Shown: positions 3,875 through 22,049 of the stretch, piece after piece
Numbering within the stretch: the stretch's first letter is position 1
Layout of the letters: each line of letters starts with the position of its first letter
From: Thermoplasmata archaeon
GTDB lineage: Archaea; Thermoplasmatota; Thermoplasmata; Lutacidiplasmatales; JAMCUS01
DNA: 56,824 nucleotides
NCBI GenBank assembly: GCA_049966015.1
Contig: JBMFVL010000002.1
Span: forward strand, 1 to 56,824
Reading direction: 5' to 3'
Program-made: the position numbers and the translations under genes
The notes under the pieces: generated by a model
What the model was told of the DNA's origin: nothing
The model's database searches: none
The model's input: only the letters and a program-made list of their open reading frames with translations

Positions 3875-6800
3875 TCAAGGTTGCTTTGGCTGGTTATTAA
3901 AGAAGTTGTTGCTTTGCATCTGGTCTGTAGTGCTTTGCTGGTTTACCATTTGTGGGACTTGAGAGTTAGTAACAGGCGTTTTTGGTTTTCTTAACATATA
4001 CATAGCAATTAAACCAAGGATTATTCCTACTACCAATCCCACAATGATGTACATAACAGATGAACTTGAGGATGAAATCGTGCTAGCAGTTGTAGATGTA
4101 GGAATTTTTTGATTGTTTACTGTAATTGATACAGAAGTTGACTTAGATTGCTTAGCATTGCTTACATTATAGTAAATTGTATATGCACCGTTTGGAACAG
4201 AATAGGTGTTGAACACTATATTGGTCATCCCTATTACACTTTTGTTTAATACTGTGCTTCCATTGGAAGATATTATAACCAGATTTGCACTTGTTGCAGA
4301 TCCTGTGTAACCGAACCCAATTGTTACATTACCTGTCAATACACTCCCCGATGTAGGAGAATATAGCGTAGCAGTTAATGCACTTACACTGTTATCTATT
4401 GTTACACTAACACTTGCTGTTTTGGTACTTGTAGAGTTGGACACAGTATACGTTATAGTATATGCACCGTTTGGAACATTGTACGTATTGAACACAACAT
4501 TAGTCATTCCAAGTACATTGGAACTGTATACTGTGCTTCCACTTTGGGAGTTAATGCTCAATGTTGCACTTGTTGCAGAACCAGTATAATTGAACCCTAT
4601 TGTCACATTCCCTGTCAATACTGCTCCCTGTGCAGGAGAGTACAGAGTAGCAGTTAATGGTATTATTGGGGGGGAATACAGTTTAATTAAGGTGACATTA
4701 TTATAACTTGTTTGTCCTGGATTTACAGTGACGCTTGCTGTGGATGATGTATACCCACTTTCACTTACTGTGACAACATACATATATGTAGAGGGGAGAG
4801 ACACACTATAAGCCCCACTAGATGAGACCGTTGGTGAATAGGTTGCTCCTGTTACAGTATTCTGTATATAAACTGTTGCACTTGATGGGGATACTACACC
4901 ACTGATCCACCCATTTATAGGAGTGAGCGATATTGTAGCAGAGTATGCAAATGTACTTATATCAATATTGTTGACCCATGGATTATTGTATGGCATTGAA
5001 ACAGATAAGTTGTATGTTCCCCTTGTTAATGTGTAACTCGTAGTATAAACTGTTTGTTGAGGAGAAAGTATATATGGAGTTGTTGGCACTGCTAACCAGT
5101 TGTCCAACATTACAGTTGGCTGCATTGTATATCTAGATTCAATTGTTAAACTCAATGTGCTTGTTGTTTGTGGAGAATAGGTAAGATTTTCGAACAGGTA
5201 TTGTATTGTATTTAAAGACAATGTTATGTTGATTATTTTTGTTATGTAGTATTGTTCAGAAATTATAATGGTATATGTGCCAGATGGCAAATAGTAGAAC
5301 TCAGAGGTATATAGGTTTTCAGAACCGTTTGGATTGAATATTCCAAGATATGGCAATGTTAAATAGGGTTGTCCATAGAGTGCGTTAATAGCACTGCTTT
5401 CTATGTATACGTTGGCATAAGGGACATTAACGATAGGTACTACCACTTCCGGTACCATATACAACCCAACCCCGCTTATACCCATTAAAACATCTCCACT
5501 ACCATTGTAAATTGCACGATACAATATAGCTGCACCTACCATGTATTGACCTTCAAGCATTGTTTGCCAGTTGTTTATATTGAACAATGGTGTAGATTTT
5601 GTATTTGTACCTTGCCATACCATGATGTTATTGAACCCATTTGTCCACATGGAAAAAGTAACTATATCATTTATGTTTTTTGTAACGTTAAGGACAGTCC
5701 ATGCGAGATTTACATATGGGTTTCTATATACAAGTTCAGTCCAATTACCAGTGGAATTCCTGACTTGTGCTAGACCAACTTCTATGATTCCAAATGAGTT
5801 TACATATACACCTTCACTATCGTAAAGATACACCATATTCATTGCATAATGAGTGCCAGTAAAGGCAGAAGTTGGACCGGTTGGTATTGATAAATTATCC
5901 ACACTCAATATTACACCGTTGTCTGCTAACAGCGGTTGCATTAATTGAGAGTTGCCTAATTGAGACCCCATTACACTATCCTGATAATCAAATATTGATA
6001 CACCATATGGCAACAATACCCATCCGCTTCCATATAGCCCTGCATCAGTATTAGAGTTATTTCCATAGAACATTGTTTCGTACCCGCTTTGCGTTGTGAA
6101 TGAGGAATAATTTGCACCTGGAATAATGTATTGGGTTGGAATCCAGTCCCACGCATCAAAGATAGTAGATGAATTGGTCATGTTATTGTAATAGGAAAGA
6201 TATCCTATTTCAGGTTGCATAGCGCTATATACAGGGGATATCCCTATCCCATTTTGTGGATTAGAACCAGTGCTAAGATTTACATATATAACTTTTGTAG
6301 TACCAGATGATACACCAACCATTATATTTTGGGTTTTATAACCAGATGCATTTACAGTTATTGTGTACTGCCCGGATTCTAATGAAGCATTGAACCATTC
6401 AGTACTTGAAGATGCATAGCTCTTAAACATGTACATACCATTGGCTGTTACTGTAGAATTAGCAGGAGATGTCCTTATCGACACATTTCCGTATGCGTAT
6501 ACAACAACGTATGAGTTTGTATAGGAAGCTATTGTACTACCATTCCACACTTTTACAGTATAATTATATATTCCTGGTTTCATCTTGCCAGTATTACCAG
6601 AATAAGTATTTGAGGATGTGTTTTGCACCGTTGTTCCATTTTGTAAAAATTGGTAACTAATGGTTGTTGGACTGTAATTAAAGGATACACCTAATTTATA
6701 TGTAGATATGCCCGTTGGTGCAAATGAAACAGATGGATACATCAATGCAATTGCAGGGTTGAATCCAGGGATAATATCTCTGGATAAGTTATACATAATA

Positions 6801-8590
6801 GGAGTACCCCACCCGTTTGTAAGGGAATAACCTGGTTTAGCAAAATATTCACCATTTGATCCTATGGTTATTTGATTAAATGGATTATATTTTACAATAT
6901 TACCAGATGGCCCCGTGACATGATTGTTGAAATCGTATGAGAGATTGTATAAGTAAGGTGCTTCATCACCCAAAACATTCTTGGTATATTTTTCAGATAT
7001 TTGGTTTAAAACTGCCCACATACCTGCACTTGCAGGGGAGGCATAACTTGTACCTCCACCACCAGCTACTAGTGCACCCTGGAATACTAATCCATATCCT
7101 GTATATGGATCAGCGTTCAGAGATATATCGGGGTATGCCCTATTAGGGTTTGTAAATCCTAATCCAGCACCATTGTTTGCCAATACCTGCCAAATCGGAG
7201 CGGGGAAATAATCACTGAATCCTCCACCGGAACCAGAGGTATTAAAGTATTGACCTATTATTCCGCCACCCCATGTAGTTTCCATTGCCCTTCCCAGTGC
7301 AATTGAAGTAGGATTGGAACTGTTGATGTACATTAACAATCTTGTACCACCTACAGCTGTAACCCATGGATAACTGGAAGGGATATCACCTACAGGGAAT
7401 GGAGAGAATTCATTTGATCCCCAATCACCAGTTGCTACGAATACAGCTATACCTTCAGTAAACATTTGTTTGAATAATACACTTTCATATGCCATCTCAG
7501 ATTGACTCATTTCTATATCAGGCAATCCATAGGATATTGAAAATACTTTGGCATAAGATTGGGAAGCAGCGTATGCAAACGCATCATCCCATGATGTAGG
7601 AACCGATTTGTTGGTATTTATCATATCTATTTTTGCACCAGGAGCCATGGCACTTGACCATTCTACATCAAGAGTGTTTTCGGTTAAGTCTCCCCCAGAC
7701 TGGTAACCAGGTGCGGTTCCACCATCGATTGGAGTTATGTTGTATTGTGCCTGTGGCAAATTATTGTACTTTTCCCATAACCTCAGATCACTTAAACTTG
7801 GAGTGGATTGTCCATATAGTAAGATTGTTTGACCTGATCCGTTATATCCTAGCTGGTATAACCTGTCCATACCATACGCTTTTGCGATATCATTTTGCAT
7901 GTAATTTAAGGTACCTTGGGCAGGAGCTAGCTTCCCATGATTTTCCAGCTGCTTATCTATATTTCCAAGATAAGGCGTTATCATTGGTATAGGTTGGGTA
8001 AAGTTGGAGAGCCCATCTATTGATTCGATCAATGGGGCATACACTGTTGATAAGCTTGGGTTCTGGGATAGAGAATAATAAGTATGACCCCTGTATGAGT
8101 ATTCATTCATTGTTATTTTGAAATTTTTTTCGAATAAATAAACCGAACCAGAGATCTTTATGCCTAAATTGTTTGGATAAACACCAACAATTGAAAATCC
8201 TTCACTTTTAAAATAACTTTCAATTTGGTATATTTGTGCGTTAGACAGCCCGTACATTGCTTTAAATTGGGTTGGGCTTAACCATTTATGATAATAGGGA
8301 GATTTTTGGTTTTGCAGTTCATTAATATATTGGTTTAATTCACTTTGGTTTTGCGGGTAAAATCCAATAACAACTGTGATTTTTTGGTTGGAAGGCATTG
8401 CGCCTGTCATTTTGGCATATTTCAACACTGGTGGTACCATGCCTTTGAGCTGCATGAATGTAACACCCTCTGGTACTAGAAGAGTATTACTATTGTTTTT
8501 TTGAGTTTGTATAATACTTCCTGTTGTTGAAAATAGCATTACTATCACTACTAAAATGCTTATAATGGATATCCATCCTAATTTCCTCAT
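3875..8590 (-). CDS. membrane-anchored sedolisin (peptidase S53, pro-kumamolisin-like) with a very large beta-rich, sequon-dense surface region
   Basis: N-terminal signal/TM ISIISILVVIVMLF. Pro-kumamolisin-type activation segment (LSPTQFKAMYGLSNAQIYQIESYFKSEGFSIV). Catalytic-serine motif GGGTSYASPA (Ser codon at 7046-7048). Roughly 900 aa of Thr/Ser/Asn/Tyr-rich modules with many N-x-S/T sequons. C-terminal TM VMYIIVGLVVGIILGLIAMYML followed by a basic/Gln-rich tail. Confidence 0.85.
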   Translation of the reverse strand: MRKLGWISIISILVVIVMLFSTTGSIIQTQKNNSNTLLVPEGVTFMQLKGMVPPVLKYAKMTGAMPSNQKITVVIGFYPQNQSELNQYINELQNQKSPYYHKWLSPTQFKAMYGLSNAQIYQIESYFKSEGFSIVGVYPNNLGIKISGSVYLFEKNFKITMNEYSYRGHTYYSLSQNPSLSTVYAPLIESIDGLSNFTQPIPMITPYLGNIDKQLENHGKLAPAQGTLNYMQNDIAKAYGMDRLYQLGYNGSGQTILLYGQSTPSLSDLRLWEKYNNLPQAQYNITPIDGGTAPGYQSGGDLTENTLDVEWSSAMAPGAKIDMINTNKSVPTSWDDAFAYAASQSYAKVFSISYGLPDIEMSQSEMAYESVLFKQMFTEGIAVFVATGDWGSNEFSPFPVGDIPSSYPWVTAVGGTRLLMYINSSNPTSIALGRAMETTWGGGIIGQYFNTSGSGGGFSDYFPAPIWQVLANNGAGLGFTNPNRAYPDISLNADPYTGYGLVFQGALVAGGGGTSYASPASAGMWAVLNQISEKYTKNVLGDEAPYLYNLSYDFNNHVTGPSGNIVKYNPFNQITIGSNGEYFAKPGYSLTNGWGTPIMYNLSRDIIPGFNPAIALMYPSVSFAPTGISTYKLGVSFNYSPTTISYQFLQNGTTVQNTSSNTYSGNTGKMKPGIYNYTVKVWNGSTIASYTNSYVVVYAYGNVSIRTSPANSTVTANGMYMFKSYASSSTEWFNASLESGQYTITVNASGYKTQNIMVGVSSGTTKVIYVNLSTGSNPQNGIGISPVYSAMQPEIGYLSYYNNMTNSSTIFDAWDWIPTQYIIPGANYSSFTTQSGYETMFYGNNSNTDAGLYGSGWVLLPYGVSIFDYQDSVMGSQLGNSQLMQPLLADNGVILSVDNLSIPTGPTSAFTGTHYAMNMVYLYDSEGVYVNSFGIIEVGLAQVRNSTGNWTELVYRNPYVNLAWTVLNVTKNINDIVTFSMWTNGFNNIMVWQGTNTKSTPLFNINNWQTMLEGQYMVGAAILYRAIYNGSGDVLMGISGVGLYMVPEVVVPIVNVPYANVYIESSAINALYGQPYLTLPYLGIFNPNGSENLYTSEFYYLPSGTYTIIISEQYYITKIINITLSLNTIQYLFENLTYSPQTTSTLSLTIESRYTMQPTVMLDNWLAVPTTPYILSPQQTVYTTSYTLTRGTYNLSVSMPYNNPWVNNIDISTFAYSATISLTPINGWISGVVSPSSATVYIQNTVTGATYSPTVSSSGAYSVSLPSTYMYVVTVSESGYTSSTASVTVNPGQTSYNNVTLIKLYSPPIIPLTATLYSPAQGAVLTGNVTIGFNYTGSATSATLSINSQSGSTVYSSNVLGMTNVVFNTYNVPNGAYTITYTVSNSTSTKTASVSVTIDNSVSALTATLYSPTSGSVLTGNVTIGFGYTGSATSANLVIISSNGSTVLNKSVIGMTNIVFNTYSVPNGAYTIYYNVSNAKQSKSTSVSITVNNQKIPTSTTASTISSSSSSVMYIIVGLVVGIILGLIAMYMLRKPKTPVTNSQVPQMVNQQSTTDQMQSNNFFNNQPKQP
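4100..4657 (-). repeat. two tandem 279-nt (93-aa) Ig-like repeat units inside the sedolisin gene
   Basis: The protein units LTATLYSPAQGAVLTGNVTIGFNYTGSATSA... and LTATLYSPTSGSVLTGNVTIGFGYTGSATSA... start 279 nt apart, with Leu codons at 4657 and 4378. The nucleotide copies have diverged but are clearly alignable, e.g. ATATGCACCGTTTGGAAC at 4181 and 4460. Confidence 0.85.
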
Positions 8591-8628: not shown

Positions 8629-8888
8629 CGTTTTATTAAAATGTTATGTTAAGATTGTATGTGTTAACTTTTCTCTTGCTTATTGAGTAGATAGTATTCC
8701 AACACCGTAAGATATATACATATTGAAATTTTTTGTTTACACAATCATTTTACTATGCCTATATCGTGTAAATCAATATAATACATATGTATCTCTATTT
8801 TTGAATAATATCACATTTACCTTGCAAATAAAAATGTATGAAAATATTTTAAACTAGTTTGCGTATAAAGAGGATGGGATTGATTTTA

Positions 8889-9743
8889 ATGTCAGAAAAA
8901 ATTGAAGAAATAATTAGTAACATTCTTGATATTGGTATAGAAATAAGACATAAAATACCATATTATACTACACCGACTAACAAAAAAAATATTTTTGGTG
9001 ATGATCAAAAAGCTTTGGATGTTATATCAAATGAGATATTTATTGAAAAATTCAAAAATAGCAAAATTGTGGGAAAGTTGGCGTCAGAAGAGATGGAGGA
9101 TATTAAGGATGTAGGACTTGGGGAGTACTATCTATCTTTCGATCCACTAGATGGGTCGTCCAATATCGAAACCAATAATTTGATAGGCACCATTGTGGCA
9201 ATATTTAAAGGGGATTATAAAATAACTTCCCTTGTCGCTTCTATGTATATACTATATGGACCATCTACAACAGCAGTAATTGCAAACAACAATGAAGTCA
9301 ATGAATACATATTAGATGAATCAACTAAGGAATGGAAACTAAAAACAAAAAATATGAGGTTTCCAGCCAAAGGATGGGTTTATGGAATAGGTGGATTGAA
9401 AACTTCATGGCCATTATGGTTATCACGATTTGAAGCTAGCGTTCTTTCAAAATATAAACTAAGATATGGGGGGGCATTGGTAGGAGATTTTAATCAGGTT
9501 ATGCATTACGGAGGTTTTTTTGCTTACCCTGAACTGGTAGATAAACCCAATGGCAAGTATAGGGCATACTTTGAGTCCATACCTTTAGCACTCATTTCTA
9601 AATACGCAGGAGGCACTGGAACAGATGGAAACATTGATCTGTTGAACAAAGAGTATAAAAGTGTTAACGATGTTGTCCCTACCTATCTGGGCAATATAGA
9701 ACTTATTAACGAAATGGTAAAATATAAAAATCAGTATAAATAA
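8889..9743 (+). CDS. fbp: fructose-1,6-bisphosphatase, class I type
   Basis: Class I FBPase motifs FDPLDGSSNIETNN and GKYRAYFESIPLALISKYAGGTGTDG. The start is ambiguous: ATG at 8889 is chosen, with in-frame ATG at 8874 and TTG at 8859 also possible. Shorter than typical class I enzymes. Confidence 0.75.
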   Translation: MSEKIEEIISNILDIGIEIRHKIPYYTTPTNKKNIFGDDQKALDVISNEIFIEKFKNSKIVGKLASEEMEDIKDVGLGEYYLSFDPLDGSSNIETNNLIGTIVAIFKGDYKITSLVASMYILYGPSTTAVIANNNEVNEYILDESTKEWKLKTKNMRFPAKGWVYGIGGLKTSWPLWLSRFEASVLSKYKLRYGGALVGDFNQVMHYGGFFAYPELVDKPNGKYRAYFESIPLALISKYAGGTGTDGNIDLLNKEYKSVNDVVPTYLGNIELINEMVKYKNQYK

Positions 9744-9766: not shown

Positions 9767-10483
9767 TCAATGACCCATATGCTGGATAATAAAAACAGCA
9801 AGGTTGTAGCTGATTATTGTATTCATAATTGCGCTGGAAATTAACAGAGAAAAAAATGAATAGTACAACCAATGTTTTATTTTTTTGATTCTGAGTTTAT
9901 ATATAAACAACAATACGAAAGAAAAAATTCCAAGAATAGGAACGTATAGCTCTACAAATCTAATTGAATATGGTGGATCCCATATTGCCCGTATCGATGG
10001 CAAATACATGAGCAGGTATGTTCCAGTTATTAGGGATATGAATAAATAAAGCAGAAGGGTGTGGGATTTTTGCTTGAATAGTAATATTATTATTAGTAAT
10101 GAAGTAAAACTTAGTATTGCTATTGCTATGATAAGTGCAATATTCACATAATTATTAAATTGAGGATAAAATTTTACAGCCATATTATAGGGTAGTAGCA
10201 ATATTAACATAACAGTCCATAGGAACATTGTGGATAGCATTAAATATGGCTCATATACCAATTTTATTGGTTTAATAATGCCATCAAATTTTATTTTAAT
10301 GCTTAGCATAACATCTTTTTTGAATTTCAATGCTTTCAGCAGCTGTTTTTTCCCAGTATTTAATATATCTAAGCTTTTAGTAAATAATTTAAAGTAAAAA
10401 ATATATACAAAAATGGAAAGCACTGTGGCAATGATTATTTGAGGTATTGCATCGAACAGGTTTTTCCACACAATTATTATCAT
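9767..10483 (-). CDS. hypothetical polytopic membrane protein (about 6-7 TM)
   Basis: Repeated long hydrophobic segments (IIIATVLSIFVYIFYF, MFLWTVMLILLLPY, IALIIAIAILSFTSLLIIILLF, LLLYLFISLITGTYLLMYL, VPILGIFSFVLLFIY). Starts 15 nt after the stop of the 538-aa gene, so likely the same operon. No catalytic motif recognised. Confidence 0.55.
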   Translation of the reverse strand: MIIIVWKNLFDAIPQIIIATVLSIFVYIFYFKLFTKSLDILNTGKKQLLKALKFKKDVMLSIKIKFDGIIKPIKLVYEPYLMLSTMFLWTVMLILLLPYNMAVKFYPQFNNYVNIALIIAIAILSFTSLLIIILLFKQKSHTLLLYLFISLITGTYLLMYLPSIRAIWDPPYSIRFVELYVPILGIFSFVLLFIYKLRIKKIKHWLYYSFFSLLISSAIMNTIISYNLAVFIIQHMGH

Positions 10484-10498
10484 CTTTCCCCCTCCTTT

Positions 10499-12115
10499 TT
10501 ATATTTTTATGAAAGAAAAATGGTTGATCATTGTTATGTCTAGTATATATACAAACTGGACATCGATATAGCCATTACTGTTGAGATGGTAGATGTACAA
10601 ATAAAAATTAATGGTTGTATTGTAGGCCATGTTAACTACAAATGATATGTTAACGCTTACATAATAAATGCTTGTTATGGTCATTGGATTTTCTGGATTA
10701 TGAACACTTGTTGGCAATGAAAAAAAGAAAAATTGCTGCTGTCCACTATTGTTGCTGTTGTTGAACCACATTTGCCATGACTCAAAGTTCCAGGTAGTAG
10801 ATAGATATCTTTTCTGTGCATAAATGTTGAATTTGAAAGCGCTTGTTAAATCCACTACACGTAAAACATCGTTGTAATGGTAGGTGTAATATCCTGCTAG
10901 TGGGGTAATATGGAACCATGCTGTGTTGTTAATATTATCTGTAATCGCAAATGACCCATTTGTTTGCAATACAACCCATCCCCACCATACTGCAGAATCC
11001 ATGTTGAATGCTATTGCTTCGTTGGTACCGTAGGTATCTACATACTCGGCACTGGGAAAAAAAGTTTGACGTGCTGGTGTAATACCATTAGTCGTGGTAA
11101 CGGTAATTTCAGTATCCGTATATATGTATGTATCGTTGGCAACCATCACTACGTAAAGCCAGAACCCCAATTTAGAGGTATCAGCACGCAGGGTTATTGA
11201 TCTTGCACCATTGGGAATCCCGAAGCCAGAGTATGCCCAGCCATTCGCAAATAATCCTAAAACAGAACCATTGAAAGATAATCCATAAATAACATAATAA
11301 GCACTGCCACCATTTGTGATCCATTCATAATCTACTATAGATATTATGGAAGAAGGGGATTGTTTAGATGTAGTTACATATTTACCTGTGCCATAGTTTG
11401 CTACATAGTTGGTTATATATCCTGTTGAGGTAGAGAAGTAATAATCCATGTACATATAATACTTGGGGGATGTGACAGACTGTGTATAAATACTTGCTTC
11501 ATCGTTGGTTATGCTTGTCCAGTTCGACCATCTGTTGGTAAGACCTGCGTTCATAAGCCATACCCATTTTGCTGTGGTAACACCAGAGGTGTAGTTGAAT
11601 TCAAAAACACTGCCATTTCGGCTTAATAACATAACAATGGATCCACCGTATGTTAGGTAGTTTGCACTTGAATTTGATGCAGCAATGCCTACAATCAATC
11701 CATCTTTTGCAGTTGAATTAGGACCACCTGGATAGTAAGGAGACCCCAGTGAAAAGGTTTTGTTTTGATCTTTCGCCCACTCTACCCATGTACTTCCATT
11801 TGTATCAACAAAAAAAGTATTACCCTGTTCGTCGCAATATGTACCAGTCCATCTATGGGATGTTATGTTCATATATACCTGATCATGATAACTGTTCTGG
11901 TGCGTATTGTTCCATAAATTGGGGTATGAATGGTTTTGGTATATGACCATCGGAGATTCAGACGACCCGGATGTATTATAATTATATCCAGTAACCACAG
12001 AGCCCTTGCCAACACCTTCAAATGAAAGGAGTAAAAAGATTGTTACCAACCCTATTGTTGCAATCTTGGTATATAAGATTCCTCCATTTTCATTTGTTAC
12101 TTTCATACTCTTCAC
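10499..12115 (-). CDS. hypothetical signal-anchored extracellular protein, Asn/Tyr/Thr/Trp-rich, many N-glycosylation sequons
   Basis: N-terminal anchor IATIGLVTIFLLLSF. Recurrent NGS-hydrophobic strand motifs (NGSTWVEW, NGSVFEFNY, NGGSAYYVIYG, NGSVLGLF, NGSFAITD) suggest repeated beta units. No enzyme motif seen. Confidence 0.6.
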   Translation of the reverse strand: MKSMKVTNENGGILYTKIATIGLVTIFLLLSFEGVGKGSVVTGYNYNTSGSSESPMVIYQNHSYPNLWNNTHQNSYHDQVYMNITSHRWTGTYCDEQGNTFFVDTNGSTWVEWAKDQNKTFSLGSPYYPGGPNSTAKDGLIVGIAASNSSANYLTYGGSIVMLLSRNGSVFEFNYTSGVTTAKWVWLMNAGLTNRWSNWTSITNDEASIYTQSVTSPKYYMYMDYYFSTSTGYITNYVANYGTGKYVTTSKQSPSSIISIVDYEWITNGGSAYYVIYGLSFNGSVLGLFANGWAYSGFGIPNGARSITLRADTSKLGFWLYVVMVANDTYIYTDTEITVTTTNGITPARQTFFPSAEYVDTYGTNEAIAFNMDSAVWWGWVVLQTNGSFAITDNINNTAWFHITPLAGYYTYHYNDVLRVVDLTSAFKFNIYAQKRYLSTTWNFESWQMWFNNSNNSGQQQFFFFSLPTSVHNPENPMTITSIYYVSVNISFVVNMAYNTTINFYLYIYHLNSNGYIDVQFVYILDITMINHFSFIKI

Positions 12116-12196
12116 TCTCTGTATTTTCCACCATCTAATTTAGATTCACATGCTGTAATAGCAAATTTAAAATAAAAAATCAAAAGGTTTTTGTGA

Positions 12197-12811
12197 TTAT
12201 CCGCGTATGTTGTATTGGATTGTTACTGTATCAGATCCTGAACCAGGTACTAGGTAGAAACCTATGTAAAGTGCAGTACCGGTGGTTAGTAATCCTATTC
12301 TGCCAGAAGAGCTACCTGGAGTTGATAATGATATCCCGCTTGCTGTCGAGGTTCCATTATCCCATGTACTACCGCTCACAGACAATGGATTGGTACCGTA
12401 ATAAAGTTCATCTCCACCTGGCAATCCTGGTGTACCAGTTACATTGATCCAGACGGATACTGCATGTTTTAATCCAGATGTACCATTGTAAATCACATAA
12501 ACGTTTATAAGGTCTGTGTATGTACTACCTGCAGTTCCATTAATATAAATTGGTGTTACTGCATATATACCCCCACTAGTCTGCTGGTTCGCATAGGTTA
12601 ATCCCATGCTGTGTGCAGTTGCATAATTTGGGCCCTGTTCTAAATAAACCTCTGCGGTTGCACTACTACCTGTTAACGTATACTCGTATGATATGACCAC
12701 TGTTGCTATTGTCATTGCTGGCAACATCAATGCCGTTACTAAAACTACTGCCCATAACAACTTCTTTTTCTTTCCCTCGTTCATTCTTTCTATTTTTTCC
12801 AAAAGCCTCAT
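12197..12811 (-). CDS. hypothetical small signal-anchored extracellular beta-rich protein
   Basis: KKKKLLWAVVLVTALMLPAMTIATVV signal/anchor followed by about 165 aa of Thr/Ser/Gly/Tyr-rich sequence with sequons (NGT, NVT, NGT). An alternative start at Met10 (12784) is possible. It is the first gene of the putative 3-gene unit. Confidence 0.55.
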   Translation of the reverse strand: MRLLEKIERMNEGKKKKLLWAVVLVTALMLPAMTIATVVISYEYTLTGSSATAEVYLEQGPNYATAHSMGLTYANQQTSGGIYAVTPIYINGTAGSTYTDLINVYVIYNGTSGLKHAVSVWINVTGTPGLPGGDELYYGTNPLSVSGSTWDNGTSTASGISLSTPGSSSGRIGLLTTGTALYIGFYLVPGSGSDTVTIQYNIRG

Positions 12812-12920
12812 TCGCTATCACCCTCTAATTAATAAATGGTAATACAATATATATATATTATTATAAATAGTGGACAATATCCAGCGTTCATAAAAATTTC
12901 GCAATAGATGAATTATTCAT

Positions 12921-12971: not shown

Positions 12972-13015
12972 GTAAAATAGATAACAAATATTAATGATAT
13001 AAGGTATTGATCATT

Positions 13016-15547
13016 ATGGATTTGAAATACTTTACAGATAATGGTTTCGTTAGAAATCAGTGTGTTAAATGTGGGGCATTCTTTTGGGCAAAGGAAAAAA
13101 GGGAGGTTTGTTCTGAAAATCCATGCATGCCCTATTCTTTTTCTGATAACCCGCCTACAAAAAAGGCGTATAACATAGATGAAATGCGTTCTGAATTTAT
13201 TGAATTTTTTAAAAGAAACAATCATACGTATATTAGGAGATATCCAGTTGTTGCTAGATGGAGGGATGATGTTTTTTTTACCCAGGCTTCTATATACGAT
13301 TTTCAACCCTGGGTAACAAAAGGTATTATAGACCCACCTGCAAACCCACTTGTTATTTCACAACCTTGCCTAAGATTCAATGATTTGAATGAGGTGGGTT
13401 ATTCAGGAAGGCATTTCACCTTTTTCGAGATGATGGCCCACCATGTATTTAATACAGAAAAGGAACAGATTTATTATAAAGACAAAACTGTTGAACTTTG
13501 CCATACTTTTCTAACGCAGGATCTGGGTATAGACGAAAAAGAGATATCATACAAAGAAGAATGGTGGGAAGGAGGGGGAAATGCTGGCAATTCACTTTCT
13601 GTTGGCGTTAGAGGACTTGAAGTTGCCACCCTTGTTTTCATGGAATTCATCAAGGATCATGACAACCTTATTCCAATGCCCATAAAAGTTGTGGATACAG
13701 GATATGGATTGGAACGCCTTACGTGGATATCCAATGGGGGGAATACCGCATATGATATTGTTTTTAAGGAATACTTATCAGGATATGAAAACTTATTAGG
13801 AAAAATGCAGGAAAGCAACAAAAATCTCTATTATATTCTGGCAGATCATACAAGGTCACTTATTTACATGCTTTACGATGGTGTTGTTCCTTCTAATGTG
13901 AAAGAAGGATATTTTGCCCGTTTGCTTATCAGAAGAATGATCAATGCCATAAATAAAATCAATCCATCATGTTCCTTGAAAGAGGTTGTAAAGATAGGTA
14001 TTGCTATTGAGTCCAAAAAGGAGGATTTTAAATCATTTGAAAAAGAAATTTTGGATATGATTGATTATGAAACACAGAGGTACAATGAAACCCTGAAAAA
14101 AGGCAAATCGATCATTAAAAAAATAGAGGATAACATGGTAAAGGAAGGAAAAAATTTTGATGCTGAAACCTTGGTTATGCTATATGAAAGCAATGGATTG
14201 CATCCAGATATTGTTAAGGAAATTGCAACGATTCCTGTAAATATACCAGATAACTTTTTCGATTTGGTATCCAAAAAGAGTGAAGGACAAGAACATAAAT
14301 CCAAAAACGAGGTTATCAATTTACCAGATACTAAAATACTTTATTACAATAATCCATACGTAATGGATTTTACTTCGAAAATTGTTGCCATACACGGAGA
14401 TGCCGTTGCTCTTGATGAAACATATTTTTATCCTACAGGAGGGGGGCAAATCACAGATATTGGTTATATCAATGGGCATGAAGTGTTTGATGTTGAAAGA
14501 TACGGTAAGACTGTGCTCCATCATTTAAAAGGGGATGTTAACGAATTTCATGTAGGGGATGTGGTAAAATGCACTATAAACAGGGAACGCAGGTTGAGGT
14601 TGATGCGCCATCATACCGGTGCCCATTTGATCAATGGTGCAGCACGTAGAGTTTTAGGAAGACATATATGGCAGGCAGGTGCATTTAAGGGAGTTGATAA
14701 TGCTAGAATCGATCTTACCCATTATAAACCTTTGACAGAGAAAGAGATCATGGATATCGAAGGACTTGCTAATAAAATCATATTTTCCGCAATAAAAATA
14801 GACAGTACATTTATGGAAAGGACATTGGCTGAGGAGAAGTATGGATTCTCTATATATCAAGGAGGAGCTGTTCCTGGTAAAACTTTGCGCATTATAGATA
14901 TTGAAGGCTTTGATGTAGAAGCTTGTGGAGGCACACATTGCACAAATACCTCTGAAGTATCTTTAATTAAAATTACTAATGTCAAAAGGCTACAAGACGG
15001 AATCGTTCGGATTGAATATTGCTGTGGAGATCTGGCATATGAAAAAATTTTAAAAGAGGAACATAATTTGAAGGAAATAGCGCACCTTTTGGAGGTAGAT
15101 GAAAGCCAGTTATTAAGTAAGATAATAACTCTTAAGGAGAGTTTAGAAAAAATTCATATTAATTCTGATGAAAAGGCTAGATCGATAGAGGCTCGGATTA
15201 TTGAAACAATAGAAAAGAACGTTATAAGCATAGGAAAATCAAAGCTTTATGTCTATGATTTTGAGGACGGCACAAACATTAAAAAGATGCTTAAGCGTTT
15301 TACATCATCAGATTACTCCGTTGCCTTGTTTGGTAACAGAAATACCATTTACATTGCACAATCCTATAACAATAACATTGATTTTAAGCAATTGGATGAA
15401 TCAAAGAACAGATGGAAACTTACAGGGGGAGGAAGCAGAACAATTGTATCTTATTTAATTCCAGACGAGAGTATGCCTAAAAAAAATGAAATATTCAATG
15501 ACTTTATCCATACGTTGAAGAGTTTAATGGGTAATGCTTGGGATTAA
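13016..15547 (+). CDS. alaS: alanine--tRNA ligase (archaeal type)
   Basis: Archaeal AlaRS N-terminus FVRNQCVKCGAFFW. Class II core FFEMMAHH. Editing-domain zinc motifs HTGAHL and EACGGTHC. ATG at 13016, whereas the ORF track uses TTG at 13007. Confidence 0.93.
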   Translation: MDLKYFTDNGFVRNQCVKCGAFFWAKEKREVCSENPCMPYSFSDNPPTKKAYNIDEMRSEFIEFFKRNNHTYIRRYPVVARWRDDVFFTQASIYDFQPWVTKGIIDPPANPLVISQPCLRFNDLNEVGYSGRHFTFFEMMAHHVFNTEKEQIYYKDKTVELCHTFLTQDLGIDEKEISYKEEWWEGGGNAGNSLSVGVRGLEVATLVFMEFIKDHDNLIPMPIKVVDTGYGLERLTWISNGGNTAYDIVFKEYLSGYENLLGKMQESNKNLYYILADHTRSLIYMLYDGVVPSNVKEGYFARLLIRRMINAINKINPSCSLKEVVKIGIAIESKKEDFKSFEKEILDMIDYETQRYNETLKKGKSIIKKIEDNMVKEGKNFDAETLVMLYESNGLHPDIVKEIATIPVNIPDNFFDLVSKKSEGQEHKSKNEVINLPDTKILYYNNPYVMDFTSKIVAIHGDAVALDETYFYPTGGGQITDIGYINGHEVFDVERYGKTVLHHLKGDVNEFHVGDVVKCTINRERRLRLMRHHTGAHLINGAARRVLGRHIWQAGAFKGVDNARIDLTHYKPLTEKEIMDIEGLANKIIFSAIKIDSTFMERTLAEEKYGFSIYQGGAVPGKTLRIIDIEGFDVEACGGTHCTNTSEVSLIKITNVKRLQDGIVRIEYCCGDLAYEKILKEEHNLKEIAHLLEVDESQLLSKIITLKESLEKIHINSDEKARSIEARIIETIEKNVISIGKSKLYVYDFEDGTNIKKMLKRFTSSDYSVALFGNRNTIYIAQSYNNNIDFKQLDESKNRWKLTGGGSRTIVSYLIPDESMPKKNEIFNDFIHTLKSLMGNAWD

Positions 15548-16073
15548 GTAAGGTGATTATAGAATCCAGTAAACTTTTTTCTTTTTCGTTAAAAGCACGT
15601 TCATCTAGAAAAGATATGAATAAAGACCCGTAGATGTAGGAATCGTCAGATATGTTTCCTATAAGTTTGAACACTTTTTCAAATCCATTGTAAAACATCA
15701 TATATTCCAGGTTATCTAAAATTATTAAAGCACTTTCGTTGTACTTTCCCATAAACTCCTCGATTTTCATGTGCATTATAGTTGTCTCTGTCGGTTTTAT
15801 AATATCCTCGTCGTCACCTTTTTCTGAAAGCCAATATACATTGCTTATTGAATACTTTACCAATTCGCTCAATATAGAGGGATGGGTTCTTGTGATAAGA
15901 AATATATTTTTTTTATCATGTGCTATGCTGGTTATTGTTCTCAGCATATCATTTTTATCTTTTACTCCATGACATAGCAATGAAAATGAACCTTTATGGC
16001 TGGATATCACATCCTCAATACTTATGTCGTTGTAAATAGTGCCCATCGATTCTTCGCCTAACCCTTCTTGCAT
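15504..16073 (-). CDS. hypothetical cytoplasmic protein, DUF835-like
   Basis: Pattern IFLITRTHPSIL...VYWLS...IIKPTE...ALIILDNLEYMMFYNGFEKVFKLIGNISD resembles the archaeal DUF835 domain. Recognised by eye only. The 3' end overlaps the alaS 3' end by 44 nt (convergent). Confidence 0.45.
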   Translation of the reverse strand: MQEGLGEESMGTIYNDISIEDVISSHKGSFSLLCHGVKDKNDMLRTITSIAHDKKNIFLITRTHPSILSELVKYSISNVYWLSEKGDDEDIIKPTETTIMHMKIEEFMGKYNESALIILDNLEYMMFYNGFEKVFKLIGNISDDSYIYGSLFISFLDERAFNEKEKSLLDSIITLLNPKHYPLNSSTYG

Positions 16074-16160: not shown

Positions 16161-17015
16161 TTAAAGTTTAGTTGAATATTCGTATGCCATGTCACCCTCC
16201 CGTTTATTGCCAAGAGAATAAGCCATTTCAGCTTTATTAATCCATGCTTCTTTCAATTGTGGATTGCTTTTAGTTGATTTATCGTAGCAGGCATAGGCTT
16301 CACTTTTTCTTCCCATTTTTTCCAATATGACGCCCATGTTGTTCCATGCTATCCCGTTATTGGGATTGGCTTTTATCGAATCTTGATAATTTGCTAATGC
16401 TGTACTGGAGTTCGTTTCATGATTGATAATTCCTTTTAGTAATAAATTCATATAATAGTTGGGAACAAGTTCATCTAATAATATAGCTCTCTCCATTGCT
16501 CCATTTACGTTGTTGATGTTTTTAAAACATATTGCCTGGTTAAAAATAGAGGCATATGGATTGTAGCCATAATCAAGAGATAAATTGAATGCAATTATAG
16601 CGTTCGTAAAGTCACCTTTTAGCATTAAATTCATCCCGTTATTGAAAAAAAGGCTCCCCTTTTTTAAAACGTATTTCATTGCTTCATATCCAGATAAAGC
16701 CGCTACAATAGCTAAAAATATACCTACGTACCACATATTGAAAAAATAAGGGATTACTCCAATAATTGGTATTATTACAGCTATTACAAGGATATAGTAA
16801 AATTTGTTTTTGTATGTAAACGGAGAGATTTCAAACTCATTGATATTGTATGTTTGACCTTGTACAGGTGCAGTTGGTTTGGGAATAGGTGCGTTGATAG
16901 GGGTAGGTGAATATATTGTGTTAGGTGGGAGAGGCCTGCCACATATAGAACATTTCTCGTTTTCTGCGGGGTTTAGGCTTCCGCACGTTGGACATTTTTT
17001 GTATTGCATAGACAT
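16161..17015 (-). CDS. zinc-ribbon / transmembrane / TPR-repeat protein
   Basis: N-terminal double zinc ribbon CPTCGSLNPAENEKCSICG. Two TM helices (FYYILVIAVIIPIIGVIPYFF, VGIFLAIVAALSGY). C-terminal TPR-like repeats (ANYQDSIKANPNNGIAWNNMGVILEKMGRKSEAYACYDKSTKSNP). Start taken at the internal ATG 17015; the ORF-track start at 17060 would overlap the tiaS promoter. Confidence 0.6.
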   Translation of the reverse strand: MSMQYKKCPTCGSLNPAENEKCSICGRPLPPNTIYSPTPINAPIPKPTAPVQGQTYNINEFEISPFTYKNKFYYILVIAVIIPIIGVIPYFFNMWYVGIFLAIVAALSGYEAMKYVLKKGSLFFNNGMNLMLKGDFTNAIIAFNLSLDYGYNPYASIFNQAICFKNINNVNGAMERAILLDELVPNYYMNLLLKGIINHETNSSTALANYQDSIKANPNNGIAWNNMGVILEKMGRKSEAYACYDKSTKSNPQLKEAWINKAEMAYSLGNKREGDMAYEYSTKL

Positions 17016-17078
17016 TATGCATTCTAAAAGTATATCGTATAATATAAGTATTTCTAACATATTGTTTTTTGTTAGGCA

Positions 17079-21062: not shown

Positions 21063-22049
21063 TTATTGTGTTTTTTTACTATGAAATAAGTAATATTTAG
21101 CAACACCGTATATTACAGCATATCTTCTTATGATTTCAATCCATCCATATATAAGGTAAGGGTATTGTTTCCTCAATTTGAACGCTTTTATTTCTAGAAA
21201 ACAGAATATTCCTGCGTAGAGTACTATAGACAATATCAAAAATATAATACCTATTGGGACATAGAATAACATTGTTGTTGAAAGCAATAAAAGTATTGGT
21301 GCTATAACATAGGGCAGAATATTGTAATACGTAGATTCATAGGATGAGGAATATCTGGAATATACTACCACACCTTCCATGGCATACCTAGACTGCTTTT
21401 TCCATAATCGCTTCAATGTTACATCAGAATAATCGTGGTATACAATTGCTTCTTTTATATACAATCCTTTCCATCCATTGAGTATGGCTCTATTAGCAAA
21501 GTCGTGATCTTCACCACTTGAGATTGTTTCATCTAAATATCCTACTTCATCAAAAACTTTTTTTCTCCATAACGAATTTCCCATGGGAAGTTTTCCAGGA
21601 CTTTTTGCAGCTTTTGTATCATAAAACCAATCTAGATATGAACTGTAATACAAAGCAGTAGTTGTATATTTTTTTCCTGGTAAAATAGGGGTAGGTCCAG
21701 CAACAAACCCTATTTTGTTATCCTTTGATATTCCTTCTATAAGGTAATGCAACCATTTTGGGGTGGGCATTTCATCTGCATCTATAAATGATATAAACTC
21801 ACCCTTTGCAGATTTAATCGCAATGTTTCTGCTTTTTGCAACATTACCTTTTGCATTGAGTGGAACCACATTGGAATATTTTTTGGATAAGTTCAATGCT
21901 ATTTCCCATGTACCGTCTTTTGACCCCCCGTCTGCAATTAAAATTTCAATGTTAAGGTCCTTGTAATACTCTTCAAGAGTATCTACAAGGTTACTGATCC
22001 TTTTGTCGTTTAAAACAGTGATTATAATAGAGATTGATTTTTCTGCCAT
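21063..22049 (-). CDS. family 2 glycosyltransferase with C-terminal TM helices
   Basis: GT2 pattern ISIIITVLND...ADGGSKDGT...FIDADE (DxD). C-terminal hydrophobic helices (ILPYVIAPILLLLSTTMLFYVPIGIIFLILSIVLYAGIFCF). Confidence 0.8.
   Translation of the reverse strand: MAEKSISIIITVLNDKRISNLVDTLEEYYKDLNIEILIADGGSKDGTWEIALNLSKKYSNVVPLNAKGNVAKSRNIAIKSAKGEFISFIDADEMPTPKWLHYLIEGISKDNKIGFVAGPTPILPGKKYTTTALYYSSYLDWFYDTKAAKSPGKLPMGNSLWRKKVFDEVGYLDETISSGEDHDFANRAILNGWKGLYIKEAIVYHDYSDVTLKRLWKKQSRYAMEGVVVYSRYSSSYESTYYNILPYVIAPILLLLSTTMLFYVPIGIIFLILSIVLYAGIFCFLEIKAFKLRKQYPYLIYGWIEIIRRYAVIYGVAKYYLFHSKKTQ

Follow-up and report, generated by a model that had tools for sequence, protein, structure and literature searches.

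Archaeal filaments that are assembled by strand exchange between subunits of the TasA superfamily have reportedly been recognised only since 2022. The described filaments of the donor-strand-complementation type are the threads (PMC9715654), the archaeal bundling pili (ABP; PMC9245690), the cannulae and AbpX in Thermoproteota, Tafi in haloarchaea, Archaeoglobales, Thermococcales and Sulfolobales (PMC12337348) and TasA in Bacillota. Homologues of TasA (PF12389) occur in Methanomassiliicoccales, which belong to the phylum Thermoplasmatota (PMC9245690). Pairs of a major and a minor subunit with a common assembly strand are represented by Saci_0406/Saci_0405 in the threads (PMC9715654) and by TasA/TapA and AbpA/AbpB (PMC9245690). 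The abp operon contains, in this order, the pilin gene, a gene for a lineage-specific beta-rich protein bearing a signal peptide, and genes for small multi-transmembrane (4TM) proteins (PMC9245690). The haloarchaeal Tafi system is composed of a pilin (TafA/E), a tip protein (TafC), an anchor (TafF) and a peptidase (TafD/G), and its assembly proceeds by strand donation (PMC12337348). Here, we describe a locus of three genes, named A, B and C, that is located at positions 9767-12811 of a stretch of 56,824 nucleotides from a Thermoplasmata archaeon (contig JBMFVL010000002.1; this whole stretch is called the window). On balance, A-B-C is probably the operon of a TasA-superfamily filament on the cell surface, which would be assembled by donor-strand complementation and would not be a type IV pilus. 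A non-type-IV donor-strand filament of the thread or bundling-pilus kind had been suggested in the initial annotation of this DNA, and the predicted fold of A, the synteny and a tail common to A and B speak in favour of this suggestion. In the best-supported reading, A would be the major subunit, B a modular tip protein or nucleator and C a membrane anchor or platform, where we infer the roles of B and C.

Predicted export and fold, and a common tail of A and B

The listing of open reading frames (ORFs) in the window displays three consecutive ORFs on the minus strand. Gene A (12811..12197) has an ATG start and encodes 204 amino acids (aa); its product, the predicted major filament subunit, belongs to a new family of putatively secreted proteins with a jelly-roll or beta-sandwich fold. 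Gene B (12115..10499) has a GTG start and encodes 538 aa, a putatively secreted, sequon-rich beta protein that is predicted to be a tip, a nucleator or a minor subunit. An ATG at position 12106 (MKVTNENGG) is more probably the start of B than this GTG, and it gives the form of 535 aa of the database protein P0005. Gene C (10483..9767) has an ATG start and encodes a polytopic membrane protein of 238 aa, the predicted membrane anchor or assembly platform. A and B are separated by 81 nt and B and C by 15 nt. The trio is surrounded by two plus-strand genes, on one side the gene of the class-1 fructose-bisphosphatase (fbp, 8859-9743) and on the other side the gene of the alanyl-tRNA synthetase (alaS, 13007-15547). 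The coordinates, sizes and gaps of the three ORFs are in agreement with the initial annotation. A, B and C are real genes, because orthologues at 70-98% identity are found in the same order and because A folds confidently with a deep alignment. The composition of the block is similar to that of its neighbours and does not set it apart. None of the three proteins matches a Pfam or NCBIfam model, and no confident match to an unrelated characterised family was obtained for A, B or C.

A fast word-index search for homologues detected only relatives of the same lineage at 70-98% identity, plus one relative of A at 43%, all of them from metagenome-assembled genomes (MAGs) named "Thermoplasmata archaeon" or from hot-spring metagenomes. 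An exhaustive search by HMMER, started from a profile of A, recovered 91 cluster representatives at E ≤1e-3 (41 of them at ≤1e-10), nearly all with a length of 170-215 aa. The impression of an orphan, given by the word-index searches, was therefore wrong, and the description of the module as "orphan" is refuted by these 91 representatives together with the conserved A-B loci presented below. One A-family gene, on the contig L014 of 1055 nt, is binned in a MAG of a Minisyncoccia bacterium (candidate phyla radiation); most likely the contig was assigned to this MAG by mistake, and the gene does not come from a bacterium. The full-length profile of A gave nothing significant against the sequences of the PDB. 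The nanobodies among its matches were rejected as noise due to the pattern of beta strands. Of the 77 matches with E up to 10, 60 were listed, and AbpA is not among these 60.

A has a single hydrophobic segment (residues 22-40) behind a Lys-rich start, and its body is rich in Gly (12.7%), Thr (12.7%), Ser (9.8%) and Tyr (7.4%). These features had been described correctly. Of the two readings given for the hydrophobic segment, anchor or signal, the signal fits better: at the N-terminus of both A and B, this segment resembles a signal peptide that can be cleaved off, and the same correction applies to the signal-anchor attributed to B. Residues 1-36 of A (12704..12811, minus strand) comprise the Lys-rich n-region, the hydrophobic helix and a site of the signal peptidase I type, with P at position -6, V/A/T at -3 and A at -1. 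In the alignment of 58 members of the A family, Ala at -1 is conserved in 53 sequences, Val or Ala at -3 in 54 and Pro at -6 in 54. The secretion signal of A is predicted to be cleaved by signal peptidase I after Ala36, and that of B at about Gly38. In eight of the 58 members, which form a distant branch with the sequence AVAVA|DVMITG, the predicted first mature residue is an Asp, in the column of residue 37 of the window protein. As already stated in the initial annotation, A has no class III signal of type IV pilins or archaellins; the conserved site with small residues lies behind the hydrophobic helix. The Pfam and NCBIfam scans detected no type IV pilin or archaellin family, and the fold matches of A are likewise not type IV pilins.

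The structure of A was predicted with AlphaFold2. A model built with five close homologues had a predicted local distance difference test (pLDDT) of 39.3 and was discarded; the alignment of 58 sequences gave a model with a pLDDT of 83.9 and a predicted TM-score (pTM) of 0.68. This model is composed of a helix (residues 12-36), an unpaired stretch (residues 37-54) and an all-beta body from residue 55 (pLDDT 71-95, strands assigned by DSSP). The body (residues 55-204; 12200..12649, minus strand), the putative beta-sandwich core, contains the motifs YL..GPNY..A and LLNVLEI.N and conserved N-glycosylation sequons, at position 123 in 38 of the 58 sequences and at position 109 in 35. According to this model and to Foldseek, A would have the jelly-roll or beta-sandwich core of the TasA superfamily. 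The first match in the PDB is 7ueg_A, the subunit AbpA of the Pyrobaculum bundling pili (E 4.4e-5, probability 1.00, TM-scores 0.43/0.48), and the second is 7pnb_A, the thread subunit Saci_0406 (E 7.6e-4, probability 1.00, TM-scores 0.41/0.44). These are the two systems that had been named beforehand in the initial annotation. The following matches are generic jelly rolls (E 2.4e-3 or weaker, query TM-score (TMq) ≤0.33), among which are found carbohydrate-binding modules, glycosidase domains, ephrin-receptor domains and picornavirus capsids. The separation between the filament subunits and the generic jelly rolls is moderate, not overwhelming.

The unpaired stretch of the model corresponds to the N-terminal tail of the mature protein (residues 37-54, TVVISYEYTLTGSSATAE; 12650..12703, minus strand), which is conserved in the family and represents the candidate donor strand. 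In the monomer model it is a coil, with pLDDT values of 75 and 56 for its blocks of ten residues. The first eight residues past the cleavage site have a conservation of 2.18 bits, versus 1.64 bits for the core. Within residues 37-44, the conserved positions alternate (V38, I40, Y42 and Y44), which indicates a strand with one buried face; nevertheless, the monomer model leaves the tail unburied. This segment could thus be an amphipathic donor strand. The same motif, [TSN]VVISY.Y, is present in B (residues 39-57, SVVTGYNYNTSGSSESPMV; 11945..12001, minus strand), directly behind the predicted signal peptide. Examples of such tails are ...VATVVISYTYPTS..P.IYL in A and ...SKSNVVISYNYP.S...P.I.YNN in B. 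The comparison of the two families with hhalign (probability 70.8%, E 3.8e-5) gave an alignment that spans only the signal and the tail. A hidden Markov model (HMM) of the tail alone (21 residues, without signal peptide) was searched against all 607 ORFs called in the collected loci and retrieved every B protein. Outside the A family, the 35 best matches are 34 B proteins and the product of the gene downstream of A in the locus L007, and each of these matches lies directly behind the own signal peptide of the matched protein. The next-best matches have scores of 4.1 bits or less. B would thus be an adjacent protein able to supply or accept a strand, and by analogy with the described pili, the same tail on A and B, which had escaped the initial annotation, is the pattern expected of a major and a minor subunit.

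Beyond its tail, B has one N-terminal hydrophobic segment and is rich in Thr, Ser, Asn and Tyr. It contains 19 N-x-S/T sequons versus 10.4 expected from shuffled sequences (P about 0.001), so that the many sequons and the signal segment announced in the initial annotation hold. A similar enrichment is seen in the surface protease encoded nearby, and the proteins of the cytoplasmic neighbours are depleted in sequons, which fits a surface location of B. The repeated beta units announced for B find weak support: residues 89-176 align with residues 199-291 in a self-comparison with hhalign (E about 1e-3), and each of these two stretches contains two units of the type 'D..G..F..D..G.V'. Such a weak internal duplication would be compatible with propeller-like blades. 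The C-terminal motif YILDI.IINHFS[YF]IP is strongly conserved. The B family is divided into three size classes that differ by inserted modules: the medium class carries an insert of ~150 aa within the core, and the long class a module of ~352 aa between the tail and the core. This variation resembles that of adhesins. No Pfam match and no PDB sequence match were found for B, the homologues being included in the Pfam check.

These data also bear on a rather unlikely explanation, in which A and B would be non-filamentous envelope glycoproteins (a coat, a lattice resembling a surface layer or a heteromeric complex) held by uncleaved anchors or by C, the tail being a sorting, processing or stalk motif. 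It agrees with the single N-terminal hydrophobic segment of both proteins, of which the cleavage is a prediction, with the sequons and the beta character that A and B have in common, and with the frequency of jelly rolls among surface and carbohydrate-binding proteins; moreover, the assembly of A is deduced from a model and from the sequence. On the other hand, the best fold matches of A are specifically two filament subunits, the near-invariant motif with P at -6 and A at -1 is typical of cleaved signals, and the conserved tail lies outside of the monomer fold. The presence of several divergent cassettes per genome and the modular character of B also fit adhesive pili better than a single coat.

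Gene order and membrane companions across Thermoplasmata

Besides the window, 44 further loci were collected by genome and metagenome scans seeded on the motif ATVVISY[TE]Y and by look-ups of exact proteins. The scans used 14 closer sequences of A, the alignment of 58 sequences having no conserved block, and they are biased to the branch with this motif because they were seeded from these 14 sequences. The synteny was established by ORF calling and HMM searches. The close relatives (70-98% identity, three lineages) have retained the succession alaS / A-B-C / fbp / giant sedolisin-like protease. A is directly followed by B in about 30 Thermoplasmata loci, where a polytopic membrane protein usually comes next, and in the closer branch a B-family gene follows every A for which enough downstream DNA is available. 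The distance between A and B ranges from -11 to +118 nt across the loci and is at most 45 nt outside the lineage of the window. The B homologues have 482-855 aa, with E-values of 1e-115 to 1e-230 for the complete or nearly complete ones. The pair is also found in the GC-rich lineage L044 (E 6.5e-92) and in L046 (E 2.3e-64). Behind B, the C family is represented in 11 or more loci: in the window and in L004, L001/2/16, L005/17, L008, L009, L024, L026, L032, L037 and L039. The locus L015 has a C-family gene 4 kb downstream, L046 a weak C-like gene on the opposite strand and L033 a transposase behind B. Conservation of the trio as a unit had been named as a check in the initial annotation, and the gene group is indeed kept across divergent Thermoplasmata loci.

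According to hydropathy and charge, C has ~6 hydrophobic or transmembrane segments, and its residues 35-78 form a Lys-rich loop; it contains neither Cys nor sequons. Its earlier description as a polytopic protein with no recognisable catalytic motif proved accurate. The positive-inside rule predicts an N-out orientation. The invariant residues are few and non-polar (I2, I4, Y27, W89 and F105, plus a PSI..IW loop), and C looks structural rather than enzymatic. The CCSMST1 matches of three C homologues were judged compositional. The invariant N-terminus (MIII...) was considered as a donor strand; it scores nothing with the tail HMM and is at most a speculation. A second family of small polytopic proteins, named C2, was found near the A-B cassettes of L033 (2434-3015, minus strand), L031 (3296-3838, plus strand), L034, L035 and L028. 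Between the copies of C2 the identity is 32% (E 4e-14); they have no detectable relation to C and are placed either upstream and divergent or downstream of the cassette. A third type, a multi-transmembrane protein of 205 aa, occupies the position of C in L044 (10192-10809). The A-B pair is the conserved core of the locus; it is constantly accompanied by a small polytopic membrane protein, although this protein can be replaced by one of another family.

Concerning a role in nutrition, it is very unlikely that the locus is a unit for substrate capture, with A as a lectin or carbohydrate-binding jelly roll, B as a propeller-like binder or enzyme and C as a transporter or receptor. The carbohydrate-binding modules and glycosidase domains among the lower-ranked fold matches of A, the weak repeat of B and the glycosyltransferase genes near the cassettes of L044 and L046 would agree with such a unit. 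No catalytic or transporter family was detected in A, B, C or their homologues, C lacks the conserved polar residues typical of transporters, and the tail common to A and B would be left unexplained. A viral or mobile-element origin of the genes, for instance with the products as capsid proteins of the jelly-roll type or as fibre proteins encoded by an integrated element, is hardly probable at all. For A, the viral library BFVD gave only generic jelly rolls and tail-fibre proteins; these matches to phage tail-fibre or structural proteins (E 2.6e-4 or weaker) and the transposases beside some cassettes are the signs of such an origin. Against it stand the low TM-scores to viral proteins (TMq ≤0.36) and a composition like that of the neighbours. 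Moreover, three lineages at 70-98% identity have the genes at the same place between fbp and alaS, and genes for an integrase, for packaging or for replication are absent. The filament operon is preferred to both explanations.

The Thermoplasmatota MAG TVZ.SD19.226 contains at least five A genes on separate short contigs (L008-L012), and several of these genes lie where a contig ends. This points to cassettes whose repetition interrupts the assembly, and to an adhesin-like repertoire in several copies. The distant A-family member P0076 stands alone. In one sub-lineage, short or truncated A-like ORFs of 144, 71 and 68 aa are located just upstream of an intact A (L033 3248-3682, L034 3004-3219 and L029 78-284, respectively); they may be genes of minor subunits or decaying duplicates.

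Proposed assembly compared with described filaments

In the proposed mechanism, A and B would be exported by Sec, and signal peptidase I would cut behind Ala36 in A and at about Gly38 in B, as predicted from the conserved motif. Both proteins would be N-glycosylated, in view of their conserved or enriched sequons. The strand TVVISYEY of the mature A would then insert into the beta-sandwich of the next A to give a beads-on-a-string fibre; this step is proposed because of the fold match, of the tail left unpaired in the monomer model and of the tail conservation. B carries the same strand on a different, large and modular body, so that it could plug into one A and sit at one end of the filament as a nucleator and/or an adhesive tip, as compared with TapA, AbpB and Saci_0405. 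C, or an unrelated small polytopic protein in other lineages, would hold or assemble the end proximal to the cell, a role suggested by synteny only. The filament polarity, strand insertion, cleavage and glycosylation all belong to this deduced scheme. Thermoplasmata of acidic hot springs would likely use such a filament for adhesion, for the formation of biofilms or for contact between cells.

Many Thermoplasmata have no cell wall. A bolder and unlikely version of the model is that of a self-contained three-gene pilus specific to Thermoplasmata, working with no chaperone, usher or sortase. C or its substitutes would anchor, and perhaps template, the filament in the cytoplasmic membrane, and interchangeable B tips would set the target of adhesion, possibly including episymbiotic archaea. 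If true, this three-gene pilus would be a new solution for the assembly and anchoring of strand-exchange pili.

The Sulfolobus acidocaldarius thread (7PNB) has several features in common with this locus: a subunit of ~200 aa, a signal for Sec and signal peptidase I, a conserved strand right behind the cleavage site, a beta-sandwich body, heavy N-glycosylation (represented here by sequons only) and no chaperone, usher or class III peptidase. The product of its neighbouring gene, Saci_0405, a putative cap with the fold of the subunit, has a similar N-terminal tail, and the gene order saci_0406-0405 parallels A-B (PMC9715654). The thread differs by its isopeptide Asp at +1, where A has a Thr, by YYY in place of SYEY and by its host, which belongs to another phylum; B is far larger than Saci_0405 and aligns with A over the signal and the tail only. 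AbpA of Pyrobaculum calidifontis (7UEG), the best fold match, has 204 aa like A and also a signal peptidase I site, and the abp operon has the same gene order as A-B-C. In AbpA, the donor strand is the B strand of the jelly roll. AbpB is TapA-like with 410 aa, whereas gene B encodes a different and larger body.

The TasA/TapA/SipW system of Bacillus subtilis belongs to the TasA superfamily (PF12389, AbpX, CanA) and contains, like the locus, a secreted jelly-roll protein. TasA, which acts in the biofilm matrix, polymerises by an N-terminal donor strand, and the fibre is initiated by the minor protein TapA, which provides a strand that matches, as predicted for B. In contrast to this system, the A-B-C locus has no dedicated signal peptidase gene, and A is not recognised by the PF12389 model. 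Tafi has the same locus logic of pilin, tip protein and membrane anchor; however, the signal of A is of the Sec type and not Tat, no homologues of TafD, TafG or DUF5305 are present, and a jelly-roll domain is part of the anchor TafF but not of the purely polytopic C. Finally, the chaperone-usher pili (type 1 and P) resemble the proposed filament by an N-terminal extension with alternating hydrophobic residues, by the beads-on-a-string architecture and by the concept of a tip adhesin. They are not homologous: no periplasmic chaperone, usher or outer membrane is involved here, and the chaperone and usher genes are absent from the locus and from the related loci.

Several observations weigh against a strand-exchange filament. 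The TM-scores of the fold matches of A are below 0.5; the core is more similar than these raw values suggest, as 54 residues of the query (26%) belong to the signal and the tail and find nothing to superpose on. The Foldseek E-values are only ~50-fold better than those of the generic jelly rolls, and a common Thr/Ser/Asn-rich composition may help the 3Di+AA score. None of the 58 aligned A members matches any Pfam or NCBIfam model, including PF12389/TasA, the model used in the surveys of such filaments. In B, a core like that of A was undetectable by profile-profile comparison at the sequence level. C has no family match, no PDB sequence match and no recognisable function, and its family is replaced by unrelated membrane proteins in other loci. 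The strand insertion and the polymerisation of A are predictions from a monomer model and from the sequence, and the locus as a whole is known from its genes.

The sequence comparison of A with the thread subunit has to be weighed in the same way. When the A-family profile was restricted to its N-terminal half, 7pnb_A (E 0.003) was the only PDB match below E = 1. Residues 1-90 align collinearly, with the junction A36|T37 on the site A23|D24 of Saci_0406, an experimentally defined cleavage site that is followed by the donor strand (PMC9715654). This match vanishes once the signal peptide is removed from the profile. The local scores are 24 bits for the full alignment, 7.9 for the signal alone and 5.8 for the mature part alone; with hhalign, the mature part alone gives P 0.006 in an unchanged register. 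The thread family is characterised by an isopeptide-forming N-terminal Asp and by YYY, and A of the window has T37 and VVISYEY instead; an Asp at +1 is found in just eight of the 58 members. Sequence homology between A and Saci_0406 is unproven and is not claimed; the proposal relies mainly on the fold and on the logic of the operon.

In the accounts of archaeal donor-strand filaments that we consulted, we found no Thermoplasmata filament or cluster of this type, the literature coverage being limited and an earlier description possible. Further TasA-like pili in archaea are no longer surprising. The subunit family, the accessory families and the host class are new here, while the assembly principle and the parallel operon logic are known. 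If A polymerises, it adds to these filaments an unannotated family of Thermoplasmata from acidic hot springs, with 91 representatives and no Pfam or NCBIfam model. A-B-C would bring two new accessory families and a simple case for the nucleation and the anchoring of such pili. The tail common to A and B is a testable prediction of the residues that drive assembly. The multi-copy cassettes with a modular B suggest an adhesin repertoire for biofilms and cell-cell association of Thermoplasmatales. Dozens of "hypothetical proteins" from metagenomes gain a name and a hypothesis.

Expression signals and neighbouring genes

Putative expression signals were read from the sequence around gene A, all on the minus strand. 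A TTTATAA box is located 5' of A (12861-12867), and a Shine-Dalgarno-like GAGGGTGA (12818-12825) lies 6 nt before the ATG. A second in-frame ATG is present at codon 10 (MNEGKKKK...; region 12784-12811). A start at this codon would give an n-region of the length found in most family members, and the Shine-Dalgarno-like site favours the first ATG. A T-rich tract (TTTTGATTTTTTATTTT; 12169..12185) lies 12 nt past the stop codon of A. A possible role is that of an incomplete archaeal terminator, which could reduce the read-through into B and C and so yield more A than B; in the proposed mechanism it would speculatively keep B and C at a lower level. A scan for bacterial-type terminators detected none, such scans being uninformative here.

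Clusters of GT2 and GT4 glycosyltransferase genes are located directly beside the A-B cassettes of two distant lineages (L044 10955-15153 and L046 275-3276), which fits glycosylated products. In the window, no glycosyltransferase cluster adjoins A-B-C, and one GT2 gene is found ~8 kb away (21063-22049). Transposases stand beside some cassettes: a DDE_Tnp_1 member, an IS256-like fragment and an IS66 element inserted in the gene upstream of an A-like gene (positions L005 1238-2386, L033 6652-7382 and L047 3666-5000).

On the alaS side of the window, a gene for a DUF835 protein (15504-16073, minus strand) has a convergent overlap of 44 nt with the 3' end of alaS, and beside it lies a gene for a protein with zinc-ribbon, transmembrane and TPR regions (16161-17060, minus strand). 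Both genes keep their position in the relatives and are apparently not part of the filament module. Beyond fbp, the region 3875-8590 (minus strand) encodes the giant protease, a protein of 1571 aa with a Pro-kumamolisin (sedolisin S53) activation domain and the beta domains PEGA and CarboxypepD_reg. It has two near-identical C-terminal repeats, a C-terminal transmembrane anchor and 41 sequons versus 28 expected. A link between this protease and the function of the trio, for example the processing of surface proteins, is possible. The protease also adjoins the trio in L001, L002 and L004, and a relative of 1452 aa is located 6.6 kb from the cassette of L044.

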